Part shown: positions 2,728 to 29,797 of the stretch, one piece after another
Numbering within the stretch: position 1 is the first letter of the stretch
Layout of the letters: each line of letters opens with the position of its first letter
Source of the DNA: an uncultured Bacilli bacterium
GTDB taxonomy: Bacteria; Bacillota_I; Bacilli_A; RF39; UBA660
DNA length: 41,888 nt
Reading direction: 5' to 3'
Assembly (NCBI GenBank): GCA_947628485.1
Contig: CANRAA010000003.1
Span: 1 to 41,888, forward strand
Program-made: the position numbers and the translations under genes
The notes under the pieces: model-generated
What the model was told of the DNA's origin: nothing
Database searches by the model: none
What the model saw: only the letters and a program-made list of their open reading frames with translations

Positions 2728-4593
2728 ATGAAGATAAATATTAAAAATGGAGCTGTAACTTTAGGAATTAATACCATTTTAGAAGAAGTAAATATTGATA
2801 TAAATGATCATGATAAAATAGCCATTGTCGGAAGAAATGGAGCGGGAAAAACAACTCTTTTAAGAGCCATTATTAATCCCTCGATGTTTGAAAAAGGCCT
2901 TGGCGAAGATGATTTTAACGTTACCATTATGGGTAAATTTAAGATTGGCTATTTAGAACAAATAACTTTTTCTAATGAAGATATTACTTTAATTGAAGAG
3001 GTTAAAAAAGTATTTAGTGATTTAATAAGTTTGGAATGTAGAATTAATAATTTAGTTGAAGAAATGAATAAAAAAAATTCTTCTAAAATTATTAAAGTAT
3101 ATACAGAATTAGTAGAAAACTATAAATTACAAGGTGGTTATTCTTATCAAAAAGAATATGAGTCTTTATTAAAGAAATTTGGCTTTAGCGAGGAAGACAA
3201 GGAAAAAAGGCTAAAAGAGTTTTCGGGTGGGGAAAGAACCAAAATTGCTTTTATTAAATTGTTACTATCCAAACCTGATTTATTAATACTTGATGAACCG
3301 ACTAACCACTTGGATATTAAAACCATTGAGGCTCTAGAAGATTATCTAAAGGATTATCCTAAAACTTTAATTATTGTTTCGCATGACCGGATGTTTTTAG
3401 ATAATATCGTCGATACGGTTTATGAAATAGATTATGGGAAGACTTATAAATATAAAGGTAATTATAGTAATTATGAAAAAGAGAAAAAGTTAAGATATGA
3501 AAAAACTTTAAAAGATTATGAATTTCAACAAAAAGAAATTAAAAGATTAAGAAGTATTTATGAAAGATTTAGATTTAAACCCACTAAAGCGAAGATGGCC
3601 TTAAGTAAATTAAAACAAATTGAAAGAATGGATTTAATTGAAAAACCCAGAAAAGAAGATTTAAAAACTTTTCAAACTAATTTAAAAGAAATAACTAAAT
3701 CTAGTCAAATGGTTATGAATTTAAAAGATTTAACAATTGGTTATTATAAAGAGCTTGCTACTTTAAATTTAGAAATCCTAAGAGGGGAAAAACTCGGCAT
3801 CATTGGGGAAAATGGGATTGGTAAATCCACTTTAATTAAAACTCTTGCGGGATTAGTTAAACCTTTAAAGGGGGATATTTTGTATGGTACTAATTTAAAA
3901 ATTGGCTATTTTGACCAAAATCTCGCTATGCAAAGTAACGATAATACGGTTATTGAAGAGTTTAGATGTGAACTACCTGATTTATCTTATGAAGAAGTGA
4001 GGAAGGCTTTAGGTTCTTTTCTTTTTAAAGATGATGATGTGGATAAAAAAATAAATGTTTTAAGTGGTGGTGAAAAAGTTCGGTTACAATTATGTAAAAT
4101 TTTCTATCATAAACCCAATGTTTTAATTTTAGATGAGCCTACTAATCACATGGATATAGTGGGGAAAGAACATTTAGAAGACATTTTAAAAGAATATACG
4201 GGAACTTTAATTTTTGTTACCCATGACCGGTATTTAGTCAAAAAGATTGCATCTAGTCTTTTAGTCTTTGAAAATAACGAAGTAAAATATTATCGTTATG
4301 GGTATCAAGAATACTTAGAAAAAAGGAAAGATGTAAAAGAAGAAGTAAGACCTCAAAAAGAGAAGGTAAAAGTAAACACTTATAATTTAAATAAAGAGAT
4401 AAAACAAATTGAAAAAGAAATAACCAAGAATGAAAAAGAATTAAAAGAACTAAAGGAAAGTCTTTATAAAGAAGATGTGTATTCTAATAATGATAAATTG
4501 AATATAGTAAACGGGAAAATTGAAGAATTAGAAAAAGTTATGGAAAACTTAAATAAAACTTGGGAAGAATTATTAACTAAAATGAGTGATTAA
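2728..4593 (+). CDS. ABC-F family ATPase
   Basis: Two ABC domains (GRNGAGKT, FSGGE, LDEPTNH; GENGIGKS, LSGGE), no TM segments, C-terminal coiled coil; start moved to ATG 2728 after GAGG. Confidence 0.92.
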   Translation: MKINIKNGAVTLGINTILEEVNIDINDHDKIAIVGRNGAGKTTLLRAIINPSMFEKGLGEDDFNVTIMGKFKIGYLEQITFSNEDITLIEEVKKVFSDLISLECRINNLVEEMNKKNSSKIIKVYTELVENYKLQGGYSYQKEYESLLKKFGFSEEDKEKRLKEFSGGERTKIAFIKLLLSKPDLLILDEPTNHLDIKTIEALEDYLKDYPKTLIIVSHDRMFLDNIVDTVYEIDYGKTYKYKGNYSNYEKEKKLRYEKTLKDYEFQQKEIKRLRSIYERFRFKPTKAKMALSKLKQIERMDLIEKPRKEDLKTFQTNLKEITKSSQMVMNLKDLTIGYYKELATLNLEILRGEKLGIIGENGIGKSTLIKTLAGLVKPLKGDILYGTNLKIGYFDQNLAMQSNDNTVIEEFRCELPDLSYEEVRKALGSFLFKDDDVDKKINVLSGGEKVRLQLCKIFYHKPNVLILDEPTNHMDIVGKEHLEDILKEYTGTLIFVTHDRYLVKKIASSLLVFENNEVKYYRYGYQEYLEKRKDVKEEVRPQKEKVKVNTYNLNKEIKQIEKEITKNEKELKELKESLYKEDVYSNNDKLNIVNGKIEELEKVMENLNKTWEELLTKMSD

Positions 4594-20431: not shown

Positions 20432-21133
20432 ATGATAAAAGAGAAAATAAGGAATTTAAAAGAGAAATTAAACTTTAAAGTAATATACATAGTAGTATGT
20501 TTAATCTTTCTTGTGGGTTTACTTTATTTTAATAAAACCCATGCTTATTATGATTATGAAAGTGGCTGGGTACCGATATTTACTGGTAAGGTAGGAAACT
20601 TTACGGGTAAAGGTGATACTAGTCCCTTAAATCAACCATCTGATGTAAATTTATTATTTTTAGTTCAAGATATAACTAATCCTAAAAATTATACTGTTAT
20701 GGAAGGAACCCCAGTAGCAGTATCAGGTTATCAAGTAAATGAAAAAAAGAGTAATTGTATACCTGCAGATGGAACATATCAAAAGTATGGGGAGAATGTT
20801 TATTCCATAGCAAGTGATGGAACAGTAACTGTAAAAGTAAAAGAAAATAAACCAAATCAAGTAGTATGTCGAATATATTATGATTATGGAAAAGATTTAA
20901 CAAAAGATGATGTTATAGTATTTGCTTTAAAAGAAGATCCATTAGGAATGGTAATCTATAATAATAAACATTATGTAATGAGTGAAGAAATACCAAGTAC
21001 AGGTTATACCTATAATAGTTCAAGTTGTAAGAATACAGATATAGCAACAAGTATAAGTTACAATGCCTCAACAGGCTTTACTTTTAAAACTAAAGGACCA
21101 AATATATGTTATGCATATTTTAATATAGGTTAG
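20432..21133 (+). CDS. Secreted/surface protein with two Cys-pair repeats
   Basis: N-terminal hydrophobic helix then THAYY; repeats P..GY...S.C...C..Y(Y/F). Confidence 0.7.
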   Translation: MIKEKIRNLKEKLNFKVIYIVVCLIFLVGLLYFNKTHAYYDYESGWVPIFTGKVGNFTGKGDTSPLNQPSDVNLLFLVQDITNPKNYTVMEGTPVAVSGYQVNEKKSNCIPADGTYQKYGENVYSIASDGTVTVKVKENKPNQVVCRIYYDYGKDLTKDDVIVFALKEDPLGMVIYNNKHYVMSEEIPSTGYTYNSSSCKNTDIATSISYNASTGFTFKTKGPNICYAYFNIG

Positions 21134-21144
21134 GAGGATTTTAA

Positions 21145-22263
21145 ATGAAAAAGAAAGTATTAAATATTTTAGTAGTTATCTTAACAATAAGTATAATAGT
21201 TGAAGGTTATATCTGTTTTAAAAATGTTAAAAATAATAAAGTATTAGAAGATATCAAAACAGTAGATATATTTGATAATAAAGATAAGACCATATCTATA
21301 ATGGTCCAAGACCCCACAACCTTTGAATACCAATCAGATACAAGTAGAACTTCATGGCCCCAAAAGACAGAATACATATATGCTGGAACTAAATGTACTG
21401 ATGCGAGTGGAACAGATGTAGGAGATACAACACCATATTTAAAATTTGACGAAAGTGATTATACAGCAACCATAACAACTAAGAAAACAATCTATTGTAC
21501 CTTATACTTTGCTAATGGAAGACCAGCCTTAGAAGTGTTAAAGGCCAAAGGAGGAGATTACTATGCTGGAGGAGGAGACCATACAACAGTAGTGGATGAA
21601 TTGTACCGATTTAAAGGAACAGTAGGCCAAGTAGATAATAATTATATATGTTTAGGAGCATCCGAAAATCCTGATACATGTAAAGCAAATTCAGAAAACA
21701 TGTATCGAATAATCGGAGTCACAACAGATGGCAAACTAAAAGTGATAAAAGCTAAAAAATATGGAGATAATCAAAAATGGAATAGTAAAGCCTCCTCGGA
21801 TGTAAAATGGAATGCATCGACTTTATATACATACTTAAATAGTACATTTTATAATTCACTTAATGCAAGAATACAAGGATTAATAGATAACTATACATGG
21901 AAAATGGAATTAACAACATCAACACCAGGAACAACAACAGGAAATCAAGATGGAACAATACAAAATCATATAGGGTTAATGTATGGAAGTGATTATGTAA
22001 ATGCAGGAGCACAAGATAAAACAAATTGGTTATTCATACAAAATGGTTATAGTGGAAACCCAGCAGAGTTTGAATGGACAATGAGTAGTTGTGGCTACAA
22101 CGGCGGTGCCCGTGCGTGGTTTATGCGTACAGGCGGCTACTTTGGCGTGGAGCTTGTGAGCGACCCGTATGCAGTTCGTCCGGTCTTCTATCTGTTATCC
22201 ACAGTAGGATTAATAGGTGAAGGAACAGTATCTCAACCATACACTGTAACAACTATTAAATAA
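21145..22263 (+). CDS. Secreted protein with C-terminal variable (DGR-target-like) domain, paralog 1
   Basis: N-terminal TM; NYIC.G, MYRIIG, IGLMY.SDY, NWLF, EWTMS...AW...VRPVFYL, GEGT..PY. Confidence 0.75.
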   Translation: MKKKVLNILVVILTISIIVEGYICFKNVKNNKVLEDIKTVDIFDNKDKTISIMVQDPTTFEYQSDTSRTSWPQKTEYIYAGTKCTDASGTDVGDTTPYLKFDESDYTATITTKKTIYCTLYFANGRPALEVLKAKGGDYYAGGGDHTTVVDELYRFKGTVGQVDNNYICLGASENPDTCKANSENMYRIIGVTTDGKLKVIKAKKYGDNQKWNSKASSDVKWNASTLYTYLNSTFYNSLNARIQGLIDNYTWKMELTTSTPGTTTGNQDGTIQNHIGLMYGSDYVNAGAQDKTNWLFIQNGYSGNPAEFEWTMSSCGYNGGARAWFMRTGGYFGVELVSDPYAVRPVFYLLSTVGLIGEGTVSQPYTVTTIK

Positions 22264-22361
22264 ATAATTAGATAAAAAATGATAAAAGCAAGTATATTGC
22301 AAATATATTGCACTTGATTTAAAGAAAAAAATATAGTATCCTTATAAAGGAGTGATGCTTT

Positions 22362-22652
22362 ATGAGTACGATATCTAATACGACTAATATGACTATTAGA
22401 ATTGATAAAGATTTAAAGAAAAGTGTTGATGAATTATTTAAAAAACTGGGAACTACTACTAACTCCGCAATTAATATGTTTTTAAGACAATGTGAGAGGG
22501 AACAAGGTTTGGCATTTAAACCAACAATAGCTCCAAAACCTAATAAAGAATTATTAGAAACTTTACAAGAAATAGAAGATTATAAAAAAGGAAAGGTAGA
22601 TCTTCCTAGTTTTGATACAACTAAGGAATTATTTGATTATTTAAATAAATAA
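22362..22652 (+). CDS. RelB/DinJ family antitoxin (no adjacent toxin)
   Basis: TIRIDKDLK...LFKKLG...SAINMFLRQ..REQGLAF, PNKE. Confidence 0.85.
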   Translation: MSTISNTTNMTIRIDKDLKKSVDELFKKLGTTTNSAINMFLRQCEREQGLAFKPTIAPKPNKELLETLQEIEDYKKGKVDLPSFDTTKELFDYLNK

Positions 22653-22681
22653 TATTAAAAATTGAATTATATTCTAAATTT

Positions 22682-22709
22682 AAAAGAAGATAAAAAACTA
22701 TCTTCTTTT
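22682..22709. terminator. Bidirectional terminator
   Basis: AAAAGAAGATA/TATCTTCTTTT perfect stem between convergent genes. Confidence 0.7.
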
Positions 22710-23052
22710 AAAAATCACTAATTATAGGGAAATCGCTATAATTTGATAAATATTCATTAATACTTTGAGATAAATAATAATATTTATTATCGATATTATT
22801 ATTTTTTAATAAATCTAAATAATCTTTAAATACTAACATAACTATGTCTTTATTATTGCTACTAACTAACATAATATTATAAAGTCTATTTAATTTATCT
22901 ATAATTGTTACTTCTTTATCTATTTTACCTTCTAAAGCAGATGCTTTAATAGCCTTGTCTAAACTAATAAAGGGGTATTTTGAAGTTATTTCTTGGGATA
23001 CTTGGTTAATTCTTTCATTTTCTTCTAAATTACCATTGTATTCATAATTCAT
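22708..23052 (-). CDS. Hypothetical protein
   Basis: 114-aa ORF starting 2 nt after the ClpX-like gene stop. Confidence 0.65.
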   Translation of the reverse strand: MNYEYNGNLEENERINQVSQEITSKYPFISLDKAIKASALEGKIDKEVTIIDKLNRLYNIMLVSSNNKDIVMLVFKDYLDLLKNNNIDNKYYYLSQSINEYLSNYSDFPIISDF

Positions 23053-23054
23053 AA

Positions 23055-24761
23055 TTAACCTCTAACTCTTCTATTTACAGAGTTTTCATTAATTTTATTA
23101 ATCGTATATTTATCTAAATGAATAACTGGACTATCTCCTCTTAAAACTTCTTTCATATAGTAAGTTCTAATATTATTTATAACTGTTTGTAAGCTTCTAG
23201 CTCCCGTATTTAAATTATAAGCATGTTCTGAGATGGCTTCATAAGCCTCTTCATCTATTTCTAAAGTTTTACCATTCATATTAATCCATTTTTCTAATCC
23301 TATTAAAGGACTGATTGAGGACTCTTTTAAAATTCTTATTAAATCTTCTTTAGAATAATCATTGGTATGTAGGTAAGTATTAAATCTCCCAACAAGTTCT
23401 CTTTCTAAACCAATACCAATTAAATCATCAGGGGTAATACTATAATTAGACTTATCTTTATCTGTTTCTTCTGTAGCACTAAAACCTAAACTAATTTTTT
23501 TATCTTGTTTTTCTTCTCTTAAGTTCGATAATGCCCCAAGACAGACAAAAGTAAGTTTTGAGGTATCAAATTCTATTTTTTTCTTATCAAATAGATTATC
23601 TCCGACATCAATTGTATATTTACCACCACCAAGGAAGTCTAAAAGTTGTTGTTGAACAGCTTTTTTCATTTCTAAGCCATCTTTTGAAGTGGCTAGTTTA
23701 TCAAGTTCATCTAAAACAACAATTCCTCTTTGGGCTAAACTGACATTATCGCCGGCTTTATGGTATAAATCAACTAAAGTATCGGTAACATCTCCTCCTA
23801 CATAACCCGTTGAAGAATAATTAACAATGGAAGTAGCCGTAAAAGGAATATTTAACTTTTTCGTTATTTCTCTTGTAATGGCTGTTTTACCTGTTCCCGT
23901 TGGACCATCTAAAAAGATAATTGATCTTTCCCCATCAGATAATTCTTCTAAAGAGGCTAGTTGTTGATTATTAACAATGTTATAAAATAAATTTTCAGTA
24001 GTTTCTTCTTGGCCAATAAACTTTTTTAAAATGTCCTCTAAGATTTGCCATAAATGACTTTTATCTTTACCTAAAAATCCTACTGGCATAAGTTCCGGAT
24101 CAGGTAAATCTTCAGGTATTTTTTGTAAATATTTATCATATTTCTTTGGCTTATCTAAAACTTTACTTTCCAATATTTTTTCTGGTATTTCCTTTATTTT
24201 TTCTCTTTCTTGTTTACTTAAAGGGGTTACTAATTCGTTTTGAAGTAAATATTCTTCTAATTTTCTAAATATCGAATGTTTACTAAAAGTTAAACAATTT
24301 AAATTACATTTTTGAGATAATAAGTTATAAAAATTGGCCTCACTAAAGTTAGTAAATCCTAAAGATAAATAAAGTAATTCAGGACAAATTTTATTAATGC
24401 GATATCTAGAGCCTAAATTAATAATCATTTCTCTAAAAATAGAGACCATATTACTATTTGCATAAACCAAGTCATAATCTTCTTTATTTGGTAGTTTTTT
24501 TAGTTCATCTTGTCCTAAATTAACAAAAGACATAAGTCTATTTAAATTAATATCTGAAGATTCATACAAATAATCTTTAATTTTACTATTAGTAAAAAAA
24601 CCTCCTAAGAAAAAGGCCATAGCTACTTTATCTTTATCACTTAAAGTGTAACTAATTTTTTGAGAAGTATATGTTTTCTTAATTGTTTTATCTTTAATTG
24701 CCACATATATATCTGTTACTCTTTGAATATAATTACTACATCCTTCATAATCATGTTCCAT
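23055..24761 (-). CDS. ClpX-like AAA+ ATPase with unrecognised N-terminal domain
   Basis: IGQEE, GPTGTGKT, TGYVGGDV, AQRGIVVLDELDK, VQQQLL, SLGF loop, ELVGR, TGARSL. Confidence 0.8.
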   Translation of the reverse strand: MEHDYEGCSNYIQRVTDIYVAIKDKTIKKTYTSQKISYTLSDKDKVAMAFFLGGFFTNSKIKDYLYESSDINLNRLMSFVNLGQDELKKLPNKEDYDLVYANSNMVSIFREMIINLGSRYRINKICPELLYLSLGFTNFSEANFYNLLSQKCNLNCLTFSKHSIFRKLEEYLLQNELVTPLSKQEREKIKEIPEKILESKVLDKPKKYDKYLQKIPEDLPDPELMPVGFLGKDKSHLWQILEDILKKFIGQEETTENLFYNIVNNQQLASLEELSDGERSIIFLDGPTGTGKTAITREITKKLNIPFTATSIVNYSSTGYVGGDVTDTLVDLYHKAGDNVSLAQRGIVVLDELDKLATSKDGLEMKKAVQQQLLDFLGGGKYTIDVGDNLFDKKKIEFDTSKLTFVCLGALSNLREEKQDKKISLGFSATEETDKDKSNYSITPDDLIGIGLERELVGRFNTYLHTNDYSKEDLIRILKESSISPLIGLEKWINMNGKTLEIDEEAYEAISEHAYNLNTGARSLQTVINNIRTYYMKEVLRGDSPVIHLDKYTINKINENSVNRRVRG

Positions 24762-24865
24762 TTTTTATTCCCCCAGTGCTAGATATTATATCACATTTTG
24801 GCTAAATTTAAATATTTAATTGTAATTTATTTTAATAATTGTTATACTTTATAATAGTGAGTTGT

Positions 24866-25492
24866 ATGAAGGAATTAAGATTTTATGATTATTTTTATAT
24901 CTTTATTATAGGAAGTGTGTTTGGTTGGATATTTGAAGGCATTGGTTCAATTGTAATTGATCATTTACTTCTTAACCATTCCGCTTTAGTTTTAGGACCC
25001 ATTAATGCCATTTATGGATTTGGGGCATGTTTCCTAACTTTAATGCTTTATAAAAAACAAAAAGCCAATGTTTTAGAAATATTTTTAATATCCGTTATTG
25101 GTTGTTCAATACTTGAATACTTTATGAGTTGGGGTATGGAATTAGTCGTTGGATTTCCGGCTTGGAATTATTCGAAATTTTTTATGAATTTAAATGGTCG
25201 AATTTGTTTACAATATTCTTTAATGTGGGGTGTTTTAGGAGTCATTTATATTAAATATATTTTCCCCTTACTCCAAAAATTTATTGCTAAAATTAATCCT
25301 AAATGGGGTAACATTATAATGAAAGTTTTAATTGTATTTTTAGTATTTGATATCATTTTAACATCATTTGCGGTAATGCGAGCCCATTCTTTTGATAAAG
25401 GAATAGAACCGCATAATAGTTTTGAAAAATTTTTAGATAAAACCTTTAATCGAGATTATTTAAAAAATATGTATGGAAACAATTGGGAGTAG
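24866..25492 (+). CDS. Putative ABC transporter permease-like membrane protein (DUF1113-type)
   Basis: GSVFGWIFE, GP...IYGFGA, LEY, WNYS...NLNGRICL..S..WG. Confidence 0.8.
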   Translation: MKELRFYDYFYIFIIGSVFGWIFEGIGSIVIDHLLLNHSALVLGPINAIYGFGACFLTLMLYKKQKANVLEIFLISVIGCSILEYFMSWGMELVVGFPAWNYSKFFMNLNGRICLQYSLMWGVLGVIYIKYIFPLLQKFIAKINPKWGNIIMKVLIVFLVFDIILTSFAVMRAHSFDKGIEPHNSFEKFLDKTFNRDYLKNMYGNNWE

Positions 25493-25495
25493 ATT

Positions 25496-26587
25496 ATGAA
25501 AGTTTTGATATTAACCTGTAATACTGGAGGCGGACACACAAGTTGTGCTAAATATATTGCGGAAGAATTAAATATGAATGATATTCATGCCGATGTTTGC
25601 AATTATTTAGAGTTAGTTGGGGAAAATATTGCCCGGATTATTGAAAAATTATATTTAGACTCTACGAAAGGTAATGGGACAATTTTTAAAGGTGTCTATC
25701 GAATTGGTGAAATTTATAATAAAAGTAATATTATAAGTCCGGTTTATTTACTTAATAAGATGGCTAAAGAAAAAATTAGTAATTATATTAAAGATAATGG
25801 TTATGATTTAACAATTTGTACTCATTTATTTCCAAGTATGGCTTTAACGGAAATTAAAAAAGAAGAGAATATTAAATTTATTAATGTGGCTACCGATTAT
25901 GAATGCATTCCTTTTTGGAATGAAACTAATCCCGATACTTTCGTAATTCCTAGTCCTAATTTAACGAATGAATTTGTGAAAAAGGGATTTGCCAAAGATA
26001 TTATTTTACCGATTGGAATACCGGTTTCTACCAATTTTCGTTTAAAACATGAGGAAATAGATATTCCTAAAGATAAAGAATATATTTTACTAACCTCGGG
26101 AAGTATGGGTTTTGGTAATATGAAAAATTTAGTTAATGAAATCTTAAAAGAAATCAAAGATTATTATTTAGTTGTTATCTGTGGTAATAATGAAAAGTTA
26201 AAAGGAATATTAGATAAAATAGATAATCCTAATTTAATTGTGGTTGGTTTTACGAAAAATATGAGTGAATACATGCAACACAGTAAAGTAGTTATTACTA
26301 AACCAGGAGGCCTTACTACTAGTGAAGTAGTTACTCTTCGTAAACCTTTAATTCATATGATGCCAATACCAGGTGTCGAAAACTACAATGCCAACTTTTT
26401 TGCAAGTAATGGTATGAGTCTAAAGGCTAAGAATATTGAAGAAGTACTTACCTGCTTAAAAAAATTATTAAAAGATGATAAGTTACAAAAAAATATGATA
26501 AAGAAACAAAAAGAATTAATTAAAGAAAATTCTTGTGAATTATTAGTCGAATATATTAAAGATAATTATATGAAAAAAAGTGCTTAA
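25496..26587 (+). CDS. MGDG synthase/UgtP-like glycosyltransferase
   Basis: TGGGH, CTHLFP, ATDY, GIPV, GSMG, CGNN, TKPGGLT.SE, PIPGVE..NA. Confidence 0.88.
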   Translation: MKVLILTCNTGGGHTSCAKYIAEELNMNDIHADVCNYLELVGENIARIIEKLYLDSTKGNGTIFKGVYRIGEIYNKSNIISPVYLLNKMAKEKISNYIKDNGYDLTICTHLFPSMALTEIKKEENIKFINVATDYECIPFWNETNPDTFVIPSPNLTNEFVKKGFAKDIILPIGIPVSTNFRLKHEEIDIPKDKEYILLTSGSMGFGNMKNLVNEILKEIKDYYLVVICGNNEKLKGILDKIDNPNLIVVGFTKNMSEYMQHSKVVITKPGGLTTSEVVTLRKPLIHMMPIPGVENYNANFFASNGMSLKAKNIEEVLTCLKKLLKDDKLQKNMIKKQKELIKENSCELLVEYIKDNYMKKSA

Positions 26588-26595
26588 ATTTAAGC
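26578..26595 (+). repeat. 18-bp direct repeat, left copy
   Basis: AAGTGCTTAAATTTAAGC, identical to 29780-29797. Confidence 0.9.
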
Positions 26596-26724
26596 GATTA
26601 GGATATTTCAAAAAAAAGAGATGAGTTATTTAATTTATAATTCTTAAGAATTTAATAAATGGAGTGAAAGGAAATTTCATTCTTTTTTAATGGTGTTGTG
26701 TTTGTAAATTCACATTATGAGATA

Positions 26725-26845
26725 TTGACTAATGTCGTTAATTGGTATATTATTTAAATATAAGGTACATAAATACGACAACAATAATATGGTATATAAA
26801 ATATAAATATATACCATATTAATAATGAAATTTATATTCGGTATT
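26725..26845 (+). promoter_or_regulatory. Promoter and structured leader of the paralog 2/3 operon
   Basis: TTGACT-N17-TATTAT; 14-bp perfect inverted repeat 26785-26821; ATTCGGTATT at 26836-26845. Confidence 0.6.
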
Positions 26846-26868
26846 TAAAACAAATAAGGAGAAGTAAA

Positions 26869-28334
26869 ATGGAAGAGAATAATATAAGTAATAATAACTT
26901 TAATAGAAAGAAAATGGTAAAAATAAGTATACTTGGCTTAGTAGCGTTAATTTTGGCAATCGGGGGGGGGTTACCTATGCCTACTTTACCCTAGGGGCAA
27001 TAAATAATTCAGAAGAAACAAATATAACAATTAAAACCGGAGCTAAAAAGAATATAAAATTAACTGGGGGAACAACAAATTATAAACTACATTTAGAAGT
27101 ATCTGATATGGCCCAGAATAAAATAAATTCAGTTTATTATGGGACAACAGATGTAAATAAAAATTATGAAACAGAAGAAGAAAAAGGAACAATAATATTA
27201 GGTAATATAGAAACTGAAGGAAGTTTAGTAGATGAATATACATGTAATGCCACAGTTAATATAGCATTAGATGGAGAAATGCAAAGTGCATTAAAAGATA
27301 ATGATTTAGTATTAGTAATAACTCAAGGAGAAACAACAAATACAATAGATTTATCAGAGGATATAACATCTCCTACTTTTTCGTTTGATTTAAAACAAAT
27401 AGAGCCAATTAAAGCTTACTTAAAATTTACAAATCAAGAAACCAATCAAAGTGGAATAGCCGGAAAAGAATTAAACATAACAATTAATATAAATGATTTT
27501 GCATGTGAGATAAAAAAGAGTGCTTTACCAGTATTAAAAAGTACCACATCACCAGAGTATTTAAAAGAAGCAGTAGAAAATGATGAACTTTTAAGATATG
27601 TAGGAACAGCAACCGATGCCAACGAACATAGATTAAATAATTATATATGTTTTGGAACAACTGATAAAAGTACATGCACAGAAAATCCCGATACATACAT
27701 GTATCGAATCATAGGAATAACAACCGAAAATGTAAATAGAGATTTAGGACTTGTTCCAAATCAAATAAAGATAATAAAAGCAACACCATCAAATACAAGC
27801 CAAGCATGGTCAACAGATTATGAAACAGATATAGATTGGGATAATGAGAGTAATACCGTAAAAATATATTTAAATAGCATATTCATGGAAACAATAACAA
27901 AGTTAGTAGGACCACATAATTGGAGTGATTTAATAACAAGTCAACAATGGTACAAAGGAGATAATACAAGTGCAAGTAGTAGTGAAATAGAAGTAAAAAC
28001 ATTAACAACAAGTAGTTATAAAATAGGCTTAATGTATGCCAGTGATTATATAAATGCAGGTCCAAATACTTATTCAGATAGTTTAAATAATTGGTTATTC
28101 ATCCAAAACGGCTGGAATGGAAATACTGAAGAAAATGAATGGACAATGAGTAGGTATGGCAAGAACAGCTACGACGGTTACAGTGCGTGGTATGTGGGGG
28201 CGGGCGCCACCTTGAACGATGCTGGTGTACATTGGGATACGCCTGTAGTCCGTCCCGTCTTCTATTTAATACCAAATATAACCTTAACAGGTGAAGGAAC
28301 AGAAACAAGTCCATTTATAATAAGTGAGGAGTAA
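26869..28334 (+). pseudogene. Secreted protein with variable C-terminal domain, paralog 2; frameshifted at G9 tract
   Basis: ATG 26869 with AGGAG RBS reads to ..LAIGGG then stops; G10 or G7 at 26962-26970 gives GVTYAYF in frame with ORF 27108-28334. Confidence 0.8.
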
Positions 28335-28338
28335 GAAG

Positions 28339-29724
28339 ATGAATAAAAATAATAAAAGAATTATAATTATATCTACAATAGTATTAGTAATAGCCTTAAT
28401 TTTATCAGTAGTGGGAGTTTCTTATGCTTTCTTTAACTTACAAATAAATGGTGAAGATACAACAACTAAAATAGAAATATCAACGGGAGATGCTAATGGA
28501 ATAATATTATCAGGTAAAGTAGAAAACTTTCATATAACAGTAGATGCCGATGATATGGCTTATAATAATATGGGGTATTATTATGCAACAAATGAAGATA
28601 AAAATTATGTCAAAAATAAAGAAGATGGGATAAAAGAATTAGGAACAATAGAAATAAAGGGAGCATTAGAAAAACCAAATACATGTGATGCTACAATAAA
28701 AGTAGAGTTAACATCTAGTATATTAGAAAGTATTCAAGAAGGAGACTTTACCTTAGGTTTAATATATGGGAGTAATGAAACAGAAATAGATTTAAAGAAC
28801 ATACCTAGTGATGGAACAATTATAGAATTTGAACTTGATGGTAAAACAAGTCCATCATATATACAAGCCTATTTAAAATTAAATAATGCCAATAGAGATC
28901 AATCATATTTAGCAAGTCAAGAAATAAATGTAAAAGTAAATGTAGAAGATTTTATGTGTGAAGCAAGTGATGGCATACCACCACTTGAAATGTTAAAACA
29001 AACAGGTGGAGAAGTATTTGCAGGTGGAGGAGATCATACAACATTAGTGGATGAATTATATAGATATGTAGGGACATATGAAGAAGTTACAAACAACTAT
29101 ATATGTTTAGGGAAAACATTTAAAGATACATGTCAAGATGGAGAAAACATGTACAGGATAATTGGGATAACAGAAGATGGAAAATTAAAAGTAATAAAGG
29201 CAAAAAAATATGGAACAAATCAAAGATGGTTTAGTAGTAGTTCAAATAGTGAAAATTGGGGTTCAACAGAGGTATACACATATTTAAATAGTACATTTTA
29301 TAAATCATTAGATAAAAGAATACAAGGATTAATAGATAATTATACATGGAAAATGGAATATAGCAATAGTTATCCATGGGGGAGTGCAATAGTAACAAGT
29401 GAAGGAACAGTAACAGCAAATATAGGTTTAATTTATGCCAGTGATTATGTAAATGCATATAAAGATTTTTCGCTAGAAAACTGGTTATTTATTTCTCATG
29501 GATTGAATGAAAATGTAGAAGAAAACGAATGGACCATGAGTAGATATGGTTATTTCGGTGATGACGACACTTATCGTGCGTGGACTGAACTTACAGATGG
29601 ATTTATGCACGGGAGTCTTGTTGATAATGCGTTTGCTGTACGCCCTGTCTTTTACATAAAACCTAATATCACCTTATCTGGTGAAGGAACAGAAAGTAAT
29701 CCATTTATAATCCATACTAAATAA
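28339..29724 (+). CDS. Secreted protein with SipW-like signal and variable C-terminal domain, paralog 3
   Basis: GAGGAG RBS; hydrophobic helix ending GVSYAFF; same C-terminal motifs as paralogs 1 and 2. Confidence 0.8.
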   Translation: MNKNNKRIIIISTIVLVIALILSVVGVSYAFFNLQINGEDTTTKIEISTGDANGIILSGKVENFHITVDADDMAYNNMGYYYATNEDKNYVKNKEDGIKELGTIEIKGALEKPNTCDATIKVELTSSILESIQEGDFTLGLIYGSNETEIDLKNIPSDGTIIEFELDGKTSPSYIQAYLKLNNANRDQSYLASQEINVKVNVEDFMCEASDGIPPLEMLKQTGGEVFAGGGDHTTLVDELYRYVGTYEEVTNNYICLGKTFKDTCQDGENMYRIIGITEDGKLKVIKAKKYGTNQRWFSSSSNSENWGSTEVYTYLNSTFYKSLDKRIQGLIDNYTWKMEYSNSYPWGSAIVTSEGTVTANIGLIYASDYVNAYKDFSLENWLFISHGLNENVEENEWTMSRYGYFGDDDTYRAWTELTDGFMHGSLVDNAFAVRPVFYIKPNITLSGEGTESNPFIIHTK

Positions 29725-29779: not shown

Positions 29780-29797
29780 AAGTGCTTAAATTTAAGC
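29780..29797 (+). repeat. 18-bp direct repeat, right copy (part of a palindrome)
   Basis: AAGTGCTTAAATTTAAGC followed by ACTTTTT. Confidence 0.9.

Follow-up and report, generated by a model that had tools for sequence, protein, structure and literature searches.

The question raised by this stretch of DNA is what wrote the variable ends of three related surface-protein genes, and whether these ends are still being rewritten. The window, which is the whole stretch of 41,888 nucleotides analysed here (contig CANRAA010000003.1 of GenBank assembly GCA_947628485.1, from an uncultured Bacilli bacterium of the RF39 lineage, UBA660), carries three paralogous genes for surface proteins, all found on the plus strand in the open reading frame (ORF) listing. 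It is contig C3 of an assembly of 1,295,524 bases in 98 contigs, which is 89.6% complete. An initial annotation of the window attributed the gene ends to a diversity-generating retroelement (DGR), in which a reverse transcriptase (RT) copies a template repeat (TR) with mutation of its adenines into the variable region (VR) of a target gene, and proposed that the three genes are targets diversified in trans. On balance, the favoured answer is that the three tips were written by a DGR located elsewhere in the genome and are old products, probably now frozen.

The three paralogs (p1, p2 and p3, with variable regions VR1, VR2 and VR3; Table 1) have mutually homologous C-terminal domains in sequence comparison and a common EWTMS...AW...VRPVFY ending. 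As the initial annotation had described, the sequence diverges between EWTMS and VRPVFY, and the AW pair is encoded in each gene by the identical codons GCGTGG. The GC contents counted by hand in that annotation are equal to the exact ones, which are 0.60 at 22091-22190, 0.58 at 28161-28260 and 0.46 at 29551-29650, against 0.31 at 21901-22000. Across the genome, 100-nt intervals (n=25,760) have a mean GC of 0.275 with a standard deviation of 0.065, and a GC of at least 0.58 is reached by 3 of them, at least 0.50 by 61 and at least 0.46 by 163. The GC-richest 100-nt stretch of the whole 1.30 Mb falls at VR1, and the GC spikes exceed chance.

Codon usage changes together with the base composition. 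Within the segments, A stands at 5-13% of third positions, compared with 51-53% for the remainder of each gene, in line with the switch away from A-ending codons that had been read from the sequence, and third-position C plus G makes up 61-63% in VR1 and VR2 against 14-18% outside, while in VR3 third-position T is 56% and C is 18%. The segments encode many Gly, Ala and Arg residues, and their richness in these codons fits an explanation that involves no retroelement, in which the GC patch would come from selection on amino acids (Gly, Ala, Arg, Trp and Tyr) or from foreign DNA. This explanation is very improbable, since the synonymous third positions switch as well, which amino-acid selection leaves unexplained, non-coding AAY-rich near-copies elsewhere in the genome have the same scaffold, and the mismatches to these near-copies are biased to adenines.

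The window holds no RT domain match and no TR-unit motif, as the initial annotation had also noted, and the RVT_1 search of the genome finds two RTs, on contigs C24 and C7 only. The C7 enzyme (C7:24688-25812, 374 aa, RVT_1 66 bits) carries the sequence LPIGNMTSQ, an instance of the I/LGxxxSQ motif that we take to be a mark of DGR RTs. Its best sequence match among solved structures is 8ub7_A, a 328-aa chain named 'Reverse transcriptase' (E 1e-22), which is presumably the Bordetella DGR RT; the best group II maturase has E 4e-9. A DGR-clade RT is present in the same genome as the three genes. Full-length relatives of the C7 RT are found in 9 of the 18 same-genus genomes, and two further loci have an RT 97% identical to it. 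The C24 enzyme (C24:5726-6697) is retron St85-like (NF038233, E 2e-64) and unrelated to the DGR.

Directly upstream of the C7 RT, a four-helix ORF matches Avd models across the whole profiles (NF033474 DivGenRetAVD, E 2.2e-8, 34 bits with a cut-off of 80; PF22296 bAvd, E 2.3e-6, 28.5 bits with a cut-off of 40), so that an accessory avd gene lies beside the RT, with scores under the curated cut-offs. The small ORF before avd (C7:23950-24340) gives a faint MutS_I match (E 0.065), far below the cut-off; the reading frame of this ORF remains open further 5', as far as an ATT codon that could be the start and that follows an AGGAG motif. After the RT lies a 99-aa ORF (C7:25784-26083) that matches no family. 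Each of these two small ORFs is a candidate for an accessory gene of a MutS-like (MSL) type of DGR. Upstream of the MutS-like ORF there is a paralog of the window genes (C7:20798-22006), which is itself preceded by a paralog of the companion gene p0 that lies before p1, and then a non-coding, AAC/AAT-rich near-copy of the tip (C7:22190-22297). Rfam searches of the two C7 loci (L041, C7:19900-22400, and L003, C7:23188-27309) give no match at E<=0.1.

The near-copy on C7 belongs to a family. A search with this template finds five further copies, which brings the stand-alone, Asn-codon-rich TR units to six, each with 108-119 nt and each on a contig of its own (C7, C85, C2, C95, C8 and C20), so the whole-genome search for a DGR RT and an AAC-rich template, which the initial annotation had proposed, returns an RT with Avd on C7 and six non-coding, adenine-rich templates homologous to the VRs. 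All six units consist of an extended -10 box (TGTATAAT), a conserved leader, the TR and a conserved 3' part of about 150 nt. In this part two small hairpins and one long terminator hairpin, the latter with a U-run, can be folded, and base changes between the unit copies preserve the pairing of the stems. Three of the six sit among unrelated genes. A seventh unit without a TR, in which the leader and the first TR bases are fused to the 3' part and terminator, is seen upstream of the MutS-like, avd and RT genes, at approximately C7:23680-23821.

In related genomes, TR units lie upstream of RTs, at times two in tandem, and at E<=1e-50 their copies number 13 in G032, 9 in G040, 6 in G008 and 3 in G001. 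The 20 TRs parsed from G032 and G040 (L051-L070) are 98-120 nt long, and all of them begin with AGGTATGG and contain the 10-mer GCGGTTCGCC; together with the six of this genome they form a set of 26 TRs from three genomes against which the window copies are compared below. The TRs vary in length (98-120 nt) and in the places at which AAY codons give way to fixed TGG, GGC or GAC codons, which indicates that the template family has itself diversified, and the several templates that the initial annotation had expected from the unequal lengths of the segments are present. The same-genus RT relatives, the two loci with a 97% identical RT and the TR units of the related genomes argue against a doubt that the contig with the C7 RT belongs to this organism.

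The mismatches between the window segments and the templates fall preferentially at template adenines, as the annotation had predicted. VR1 differs from the C7 TR at 18 of 26 adenine sites and at 9 of 55 other sites (Fisher p 6e-6), VR2 from the C20 TR at 16/28 and 11/67 (p 1.3e-4) and VR3 from the C8 TR at 21/35 and 20/69 (p 3e-3), and the bias is similar against the 26 TRs. The window copies also retain the template scaffold GCGTGG ... GT.CG.CC.GTCTT. The codons that flank GCGTGG number 6 and 17 in VR1, 8 and 18 in VR2 and 9 and 17 in VR3; only the VR3 architecture equals that of an assembled TR, which is the C8 type, and those of VR1 and VR2 equal none. Parts of VR2 match TRs of the relatives, namely L058 for the 5' part and L061 for the 3' part, and the TGG.ACGCCT type of end is common to VR2, the C20 template and L061.

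The three genes belong to a large family. With four C-terminal domains as queries, tblastn gives 41 loci in the genome, which agrees with the dispersed repertoire that had been proposed and supplies the genome-wide count of paralogs. With adenine-lenient scoring, 18 of these 41 loci give an alignment of 78 nt or more to a TR; this scoring could favour adenine mismatches, and with neutral scoring the conclusions are unchanged. Under neutral scoring, the C18 VR differs from the C7 TR at 14 of 26 adenine sites and at 1 of 52 others, the C7 target differs from the C20 TR at 15/32 and 3/76, and the C45 copy differs from the C8 TR at 19/35 and 5/69. Apart from the position of the initiation-of-mutagenic-homing (IMH) segment, the C18 paralog differs from its template only at TR adenines (14 adenine mismatches, 1 non-adenine). 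Pairwise identities of flanks and VRs among the 18 loci were discarded, because the flank intervals depended on alignment ends that vary between loci, and free end gaps gave spurious values of 1.00.

None of the three window segments matches any of the 26 TRs at all non-adenine sites, which is the standard criterion for a DGR variable region (applied in PMC5758913 and PMC10907252), and each keeps 9-20 such mismatches. The best alignments leave 9/55 to 11/67 non-adenine mismatches in VR1 and 11/52 to 20/69 in VR3, and in VR2 they leave 12/79 to 17/80 over the full length and 6/42 in a partial alignment of 66 nt to L058. The ends of the segments have drifted as well. The 10-mer GCGGTTCGCC, which is invariant in 26/26 TRs, occurs exactly 18 times in the genome, 6 times in TRs and 12 times in the C-termini of paralogs (12/41 loci) and nowhere else, and it is absent from the window, so that an intact IMH-like homing segment is not found there. 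The corresponding window versions (GCAGTTCGTC, GTAGTCCGTC and GCTGTACGCC) differ from it at 2, 4 and 2 of the 10 positions, and the changes are largely silent: VR1 and VR3 still encode Ala-Val-Arg at this place, and VR2 encodes Val-Val-Arg, an Ala-to-Val change. The 3' end of VR1 is GCAGTTCGTCCGGTC, against GCGGTTCGCCC.GTC in templates and fresh copies, the 3' end of VR2 has drifted to GTAGTCCGTCC, and drift is also seen at the 5' AGGTATGG of VR1 and VR3. In the Bordetella phage DGR, according to the available excerpts of PMC3240598, a functional IMH is needed at the VR 3' end, and a target was inactivated there by means of silent mutations at both VR ends.

Variation was read from assembled contigs (Logan) of four runs. 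In the independent run X5, a contig over 29441-29773 spans VR3 and has 3 differences in 333 nt, no more than in its flanks, and five X5 contigs on single-copy neighbours have from 1/292 to 8/438 differences. The non-adenine mismatches, the drifted ends that lack GCGGTTCGCC and the stability of VR3 are the reasons for regarding the three tips as probably frozen. VR3 looks the oldest of the three, given the decay of its NNC codons to NNT. The initial annotation stands in the DGR origin of the segments, and its picture of targets that are rewritten at present probably does not hold for these three copies, in view of the 0/26 TRs matched at non-adenine sites, the drifted ends and the stable VR3.

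The opposite possibility, that the three segments are active trans targets which the C7 RT rewrites from unassembled templates or by partial, mosaic homing, is unlikely. In its favour, the RT, Avd and multiple TRs are intact. The relatives have larger TR repertoires (13 in G032 and 9 in G040), and six is probably an undercount for an assembly in 98 contigs. The architectures of VR1 and VR2 match no assembled TR, yet pieces of VR2 match L058 and L061; the GC of these two segments is undiminished at 0.58, and the contig break inside VR2 described below is unexplained by repeats. Against this, the 26/26 TRs from three genomes share invariant ends, which makes an unseen TR with the silent changes of the window copies unlikely, GCGGTTCGCC is absent from all three VRs, and VR3 is stable between two studies.

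Several points weigh against the view that the tips are frozen. Repeated TR units assemble badly, and in an assembly of this completeness and fragmentation a template that matches VR1 or VR2 could be missing. The GC of VR1 and VR2 is as high as that of the freshest copies (0.53-0.57), which argues against long decay. Well-preserved paralogs, including ones with intact ends, show 3-15 non-adenine mismatches to the assembled TRs under adenine-lenient scoring, so mismatch counts alone cannot separate active from inactive copies, and in the paralogs with intact ends such mismatches point to unassembled templates. The need for the end segment is presumed for this RT by analogy with the Bordetella phage system. 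In X1, the presumed source run, contigs break off at 28196 and begin again at 28204, within VR2, where no 31-mer is repeated in the assembled genome; the break may come from heterogeneity, from a dip of coverage in a G-rich stretch or from an unassembled paralog. The contig data leave room for minor variants at any of the three VRs.

For VR1 and VR2 the contigs are of less use. The 41 paralogs cross-map at 85% likeness, which leads to 915 unlisted differences and many joints and makes the per-site variation of VR1 and VR2 unreadable; no listed piece from other studies covers these two segments, and scans of metagenome contigs for their flank patterns give no match. An X1 contig joins 22088 to 22170 and skips 81 (side 33), which may be a variant of VR1 or a contig of a paralog, and 31-mers common to C40, C45 and C89 account for the contig break at 22188. 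The window cassettes are absent from the syntenic sites of the nearest genomes.

This absence bears on where the tips were written. In the three related genomes G032, G040 and G046, the left flank (to about 26595) joins the right flank (from about 29780) and the 18-nt direct repeat that bounds the cassette is present once, so p2 and p3 form a 3.2 kb insertion without counterpart in three related species. In G040 the flanking genes of p0-p1 are present without the pair between them, and in G032 its arrangement is different. The closest relative of the pair is the C40 cassette of its own genome, which is 86% identical overall; identity is 98% in p0, falls to 63-72% across the VR and is only 67-68% in the stretch 21742-21861, outside the VR. 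Besides retrohoming, the family evolves by gain, loss and mosaicism at the DNA level.

These arrangements suit a further explanation, in which homing never took place at the present loci of the segments, these having been written in an ancestral paralog and brought in by cassette duplication, insertion or gene conversion. The site of the p2-p3 cassette is empty in 3/3 nearest genomes and bounded by the direct repeat, the p0-p1 cassette is absent in G040, and the likeness of p0-p1 to the C40 cassette is a mosaic from 98% down to 63%. The present data do not separate it from the favoured reading, which partly contains it, and it changes where the segments were written, not what wrote them; as a separate account it is rather improbable.

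The predicted fold of the proteins agrees with that of known DGR targets, as the initial annotation had supposed. The AlphaFold2 (AF2) model of p1, built from an alignment of 82 rows (pLDDT 87), has a membrane helix, a beta-rich middle domain and a C-terminal domain, and its structural matches to C-type lectins extend over residues ~124-353. The best match is the Thomasclavelia ramosa IgA peptidase (9qa6_A, residues 32-306), with Z 16.5 over 199 aligned residues at 17% identity (p1 residues 124-372), well above the generic C-type lectin matches; this hints at a module for binding host glycoproteins or antibodies that the two proteins have in common. The C-terminal domain matches that of Legionella Lcl with Z 7.6, and most matches at Z 5-6.2 are C-type lectin domains over residues ~165-353, among them Treponema TvpA (2y3c, Z 5.9, 136 residues aligned). 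In the model, the VR is placed C-terminally in a domain of C-type-lectin fold. By sequence, p1 is a member of Pfam DUF6273 (PF19789), with 40.9 bits and E 2.6e-10 at a gathering cut-off of 23.5 bits, p3 scores 22.3 bits, slightly below that cut-off, p2 has no Pfam match, p0 has no family match at the curated cut-off, and an NCBIfam search of the four window proteins gives no meaningful match. The YAFF/THAYY motif may be that of a SipW-type signal peptide.

In the protein collection no homologue of p1 exceeds 77% identity, the top ones being paralogs from its own genome and the best outside it reaching 67-71%, and five relatives offer no orthologue of the C7 target with more than 72% identity. 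Two kinds of intergenic element are seen 3' of other targets: a GC-rich, hairpin-like element that starts with ATATCGCCCAAGGCGG (type i, on C7, C45, C11, C29 and C84) and an element with repeated GTCGAA/TTCGAC motifs (type ii, on C55, C40, C23, C81, C13 and C21). Neither type lies 3' of the three window genes.

Paralog 2 differs from what was first annotated. The gene exists, and the ORF at 26869 that was taken for it ends at 26994 and encodes a leader of 41 aa, one base out of register with the body. The frame that starts at 26970 reads VTYAYFTLG... and stays open into the ORF at 27108. Leader and body are separated at a G9 homopolymer, at which one additional G or the loss of two would join them. 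The genome has 19 G/C runs of at least 7 nt, and seven of these are poly-G tracts that follow immediately on a short leader of the signal-anchor kind and precede a paralog cassette; the tract is G9 and out of frame in six cases and G8 and in frame in one (on C81). Judging from the reading frames, the length of a long homopolymer at the 5' end of the coding sequence would set the frame of these genes, an arrangement that resembles slipped-strand phase variation added on top of the DGR family. Among the contig differences listed, none alters the tract length at 26962-26970, and contigs drop minor variants. At least six other G/C runs of 8-9 nt lie between TTGACA-like and TATAAT-like boxes (C12:204-212, C22:12914-12922, C95:668-675 and 3732-3740, C20:16617-16625 and C97:1745-1753), as is typical of the spacer in a phase-variable promoter.

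Table 1. Positions of the three paralogs, their variable regions and associated features (window coordinates unless a contig is named)
Feature	Position	Strand	Description	Basis
Companion gene p0	20432..21133	+	233 aa; N-terminal membrane helix, then THAYY motif; directly 5' of paralog 1	ORF
Paralog 1 (p1)	21145..22263	+	372 aa; membrane anchor, beta-rich middle domain, C-terminal DUF6273 / C-type-lectin-like domain	Pfam, AF2 model
VR1	22087..22194	+	DGR-type variable region; 36 codons, GC 0.58, A 0.13	
Direct repeat, left copy	26578..26595	.	18 nt, AAGTGCTTAAATTTAAGC; bounds the paralog 2-3 insertion	
Paralog 2 leader ORF	26869..26994	+	41 aa, signal-anchor-like; severed from the body by a frameshift	
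G9 homopolymer	26962..26970	+	Between paralog 2 leader and body	
Paralog 2 (p2) body	26970..28334	+	Open frame from 26970; ATG-started ORF 27108-28334, 408 aa	
VR2	28149..28262	+	38 codons, GC 0.58	
Paralog 3 (p3)	28339..29724	+	461 aa from ATG 28339 (466 aa from GTG 28324)	AGGAG motif 8 nt before 28339
VR3	29539..29655	+	39 codons, GC 0.44; most decayed of the three	
Direct repeat, right copy	29780..29797	.	18 nt, AAGTGCTTAAATTTAAGC; one half of a complete palindromic terminator	
Sister poly-G tracts	C11:28318-28326, C33:12108-12116, C34:13493-13501, C61:295-303, C77:3553-3561, C81:821-828			

The steps by which the frozen tips would have arisen can be put together as follows. The C7 operon would encode the MutS-like ORF, Avd and the DGR-type RT, and at least six small stand-alone genes, each with its own extended -10 box, AAY-rich TR, structured 3' part and intrinsic terminator, would supply the TR RNAs. 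By the published DGR mechanism, the RT-Avd complex would copy a TR RNA into cDNA and misread its adenines, and the cDNA would replace the homologous 3' end of a target gene. The targets would be the members of the membrane-anchored family of 41 loci, with the rewritten loop region in the C-terminal C-type-lectin-like domain. The window copies would later have gained largely silent point changes at template-invariant positions and at both homing ends. Cassettes would also move by gain and loss at the DNA level, p2 and p3 having arrived as the 3.2 kb insertion, and the expression of p2 would in addition be gated by slippage of its G9 tract.

A genome of 1.3 Mb holds 41 loci of a DGR-target family, six templates and one RT, and this layout recurs in related genomes. 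If active, the system would be among the densest for programmed variation in a bacterium and a natural experiment on the choice of one RT among templates and targets. The window copies would show what becomes of a DGR tip after rewriting ends, when the scaffold is kept, the homing ends drift silently and NNC codons turn to NNT, and such decay would give an ordering of targets by the time since their last rewriting that needs sequence only. A wider picture is tentative and somewhat doubtful: in a genus of gut Bacilli with genomes of ~1-1.5 Mb, surface variation would be combinatorial, with one RT that is fed by a family of autonomous TR genes (6 here and at least 13 in a relative), different in length and in fixed Trp and Gly positions, and that writes about 40 lectin-like tips, and with poly-G slippage that turns single cassettes on or off. 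Template choice, adenine mutagenesis and phase variation would then multiply each other, and the window copies would stand as the archive of selected products in a continuous cycle through which tips are born, rewritten and frozen.

Among known systems, the DGR of Treponema denticola, with TvpA and seven remote targets, is similar in being chromosomal and not phage-borne and in having one RT and scattered paralogous surface proteins of C-type-lectin fold, according to the excerpted account (PMC5758913). It differs in the number of targets, as 41 paralog loci are found here, 12 of them with the intact homing segment, and in its accessory gene, which is an HRDC gene in Treponema, whereas Avd and a MutS-like ORF are found here. 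In the available parts of published surveys, the maximum is eight targets per element and seven non-adjacent targets (PMC5758913), or six targets per metagenome-assembled genome (PMC11661182), and a single template is given per element (PMC5758913, PMC11661182). In the portions of the literature covered, no description of a dispersed, separately transcribed family of TR genes was found, which is not proof of absence; on several TRs per genome there is a metagenomic remark on Treponema.

The DGRs of Thiohalocapsa PB-PSB1 are similar in that incomplete loci and remote targets are served by an RT or TR elsewhere, and one of its targets matches the template yet shows no variation, as the excerpts of PMC10907252 describe. 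Unlike that target, the window copies differ from every template of the set at non-adenine sites. Thiohalocapsa is a multicellular bacterium with several RTs and putative antigen sensors as targets, whereas one RT, many TR genes and adhesin-like proteins occur here in a genome of 1.3 Mb. Phage targets with DUF6273, which are the tentaclins and related single-domain proteins, share the domain, which is modelled as a C-type lectin with the VR as a surface beta-hairpin in the accessible text of PMC10743442. These are tail or decoration proteins, some with an N-terminal domain, and have TR and RT in cis, unlike the membrane-anchored cellular proteins of this genome, in which the domain is C-terminal and the templates are remote.

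Small MutS-like ORFs beside avd and RT are known from MSL-type DGRs (architecture D of Wu et al. 2018, including the Legionella DGR), as the excerpts of PMC5758913 state; unlike in those, the MutS_I match here is far below the cut-off, and the second small ORF, after the RT, matches no family. Bordetella phage BPP-1 (Mtd, Avd and bRT) resembles the present system in its RT and Avd, in its adenine-specific mutagenesis and in the position of the VR at the 3' end of the gene. In both, a GC-rich segment common to TR and VR is followed by a short differing stretch; in the present system the VR has GTC there, and the TR has GCC plus small insertions. A GC-rich cruciform with a 4-nt loop directly 3' of the VRs, as in BPP-1, was not found in an examination by eye only. 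BPP-1 has one TR between avd and brt and one target, unlike the system described here. DGRs with remote targets are already known, and what is unusual in this genome is the scale of the target family and the existence of a family of template genes.

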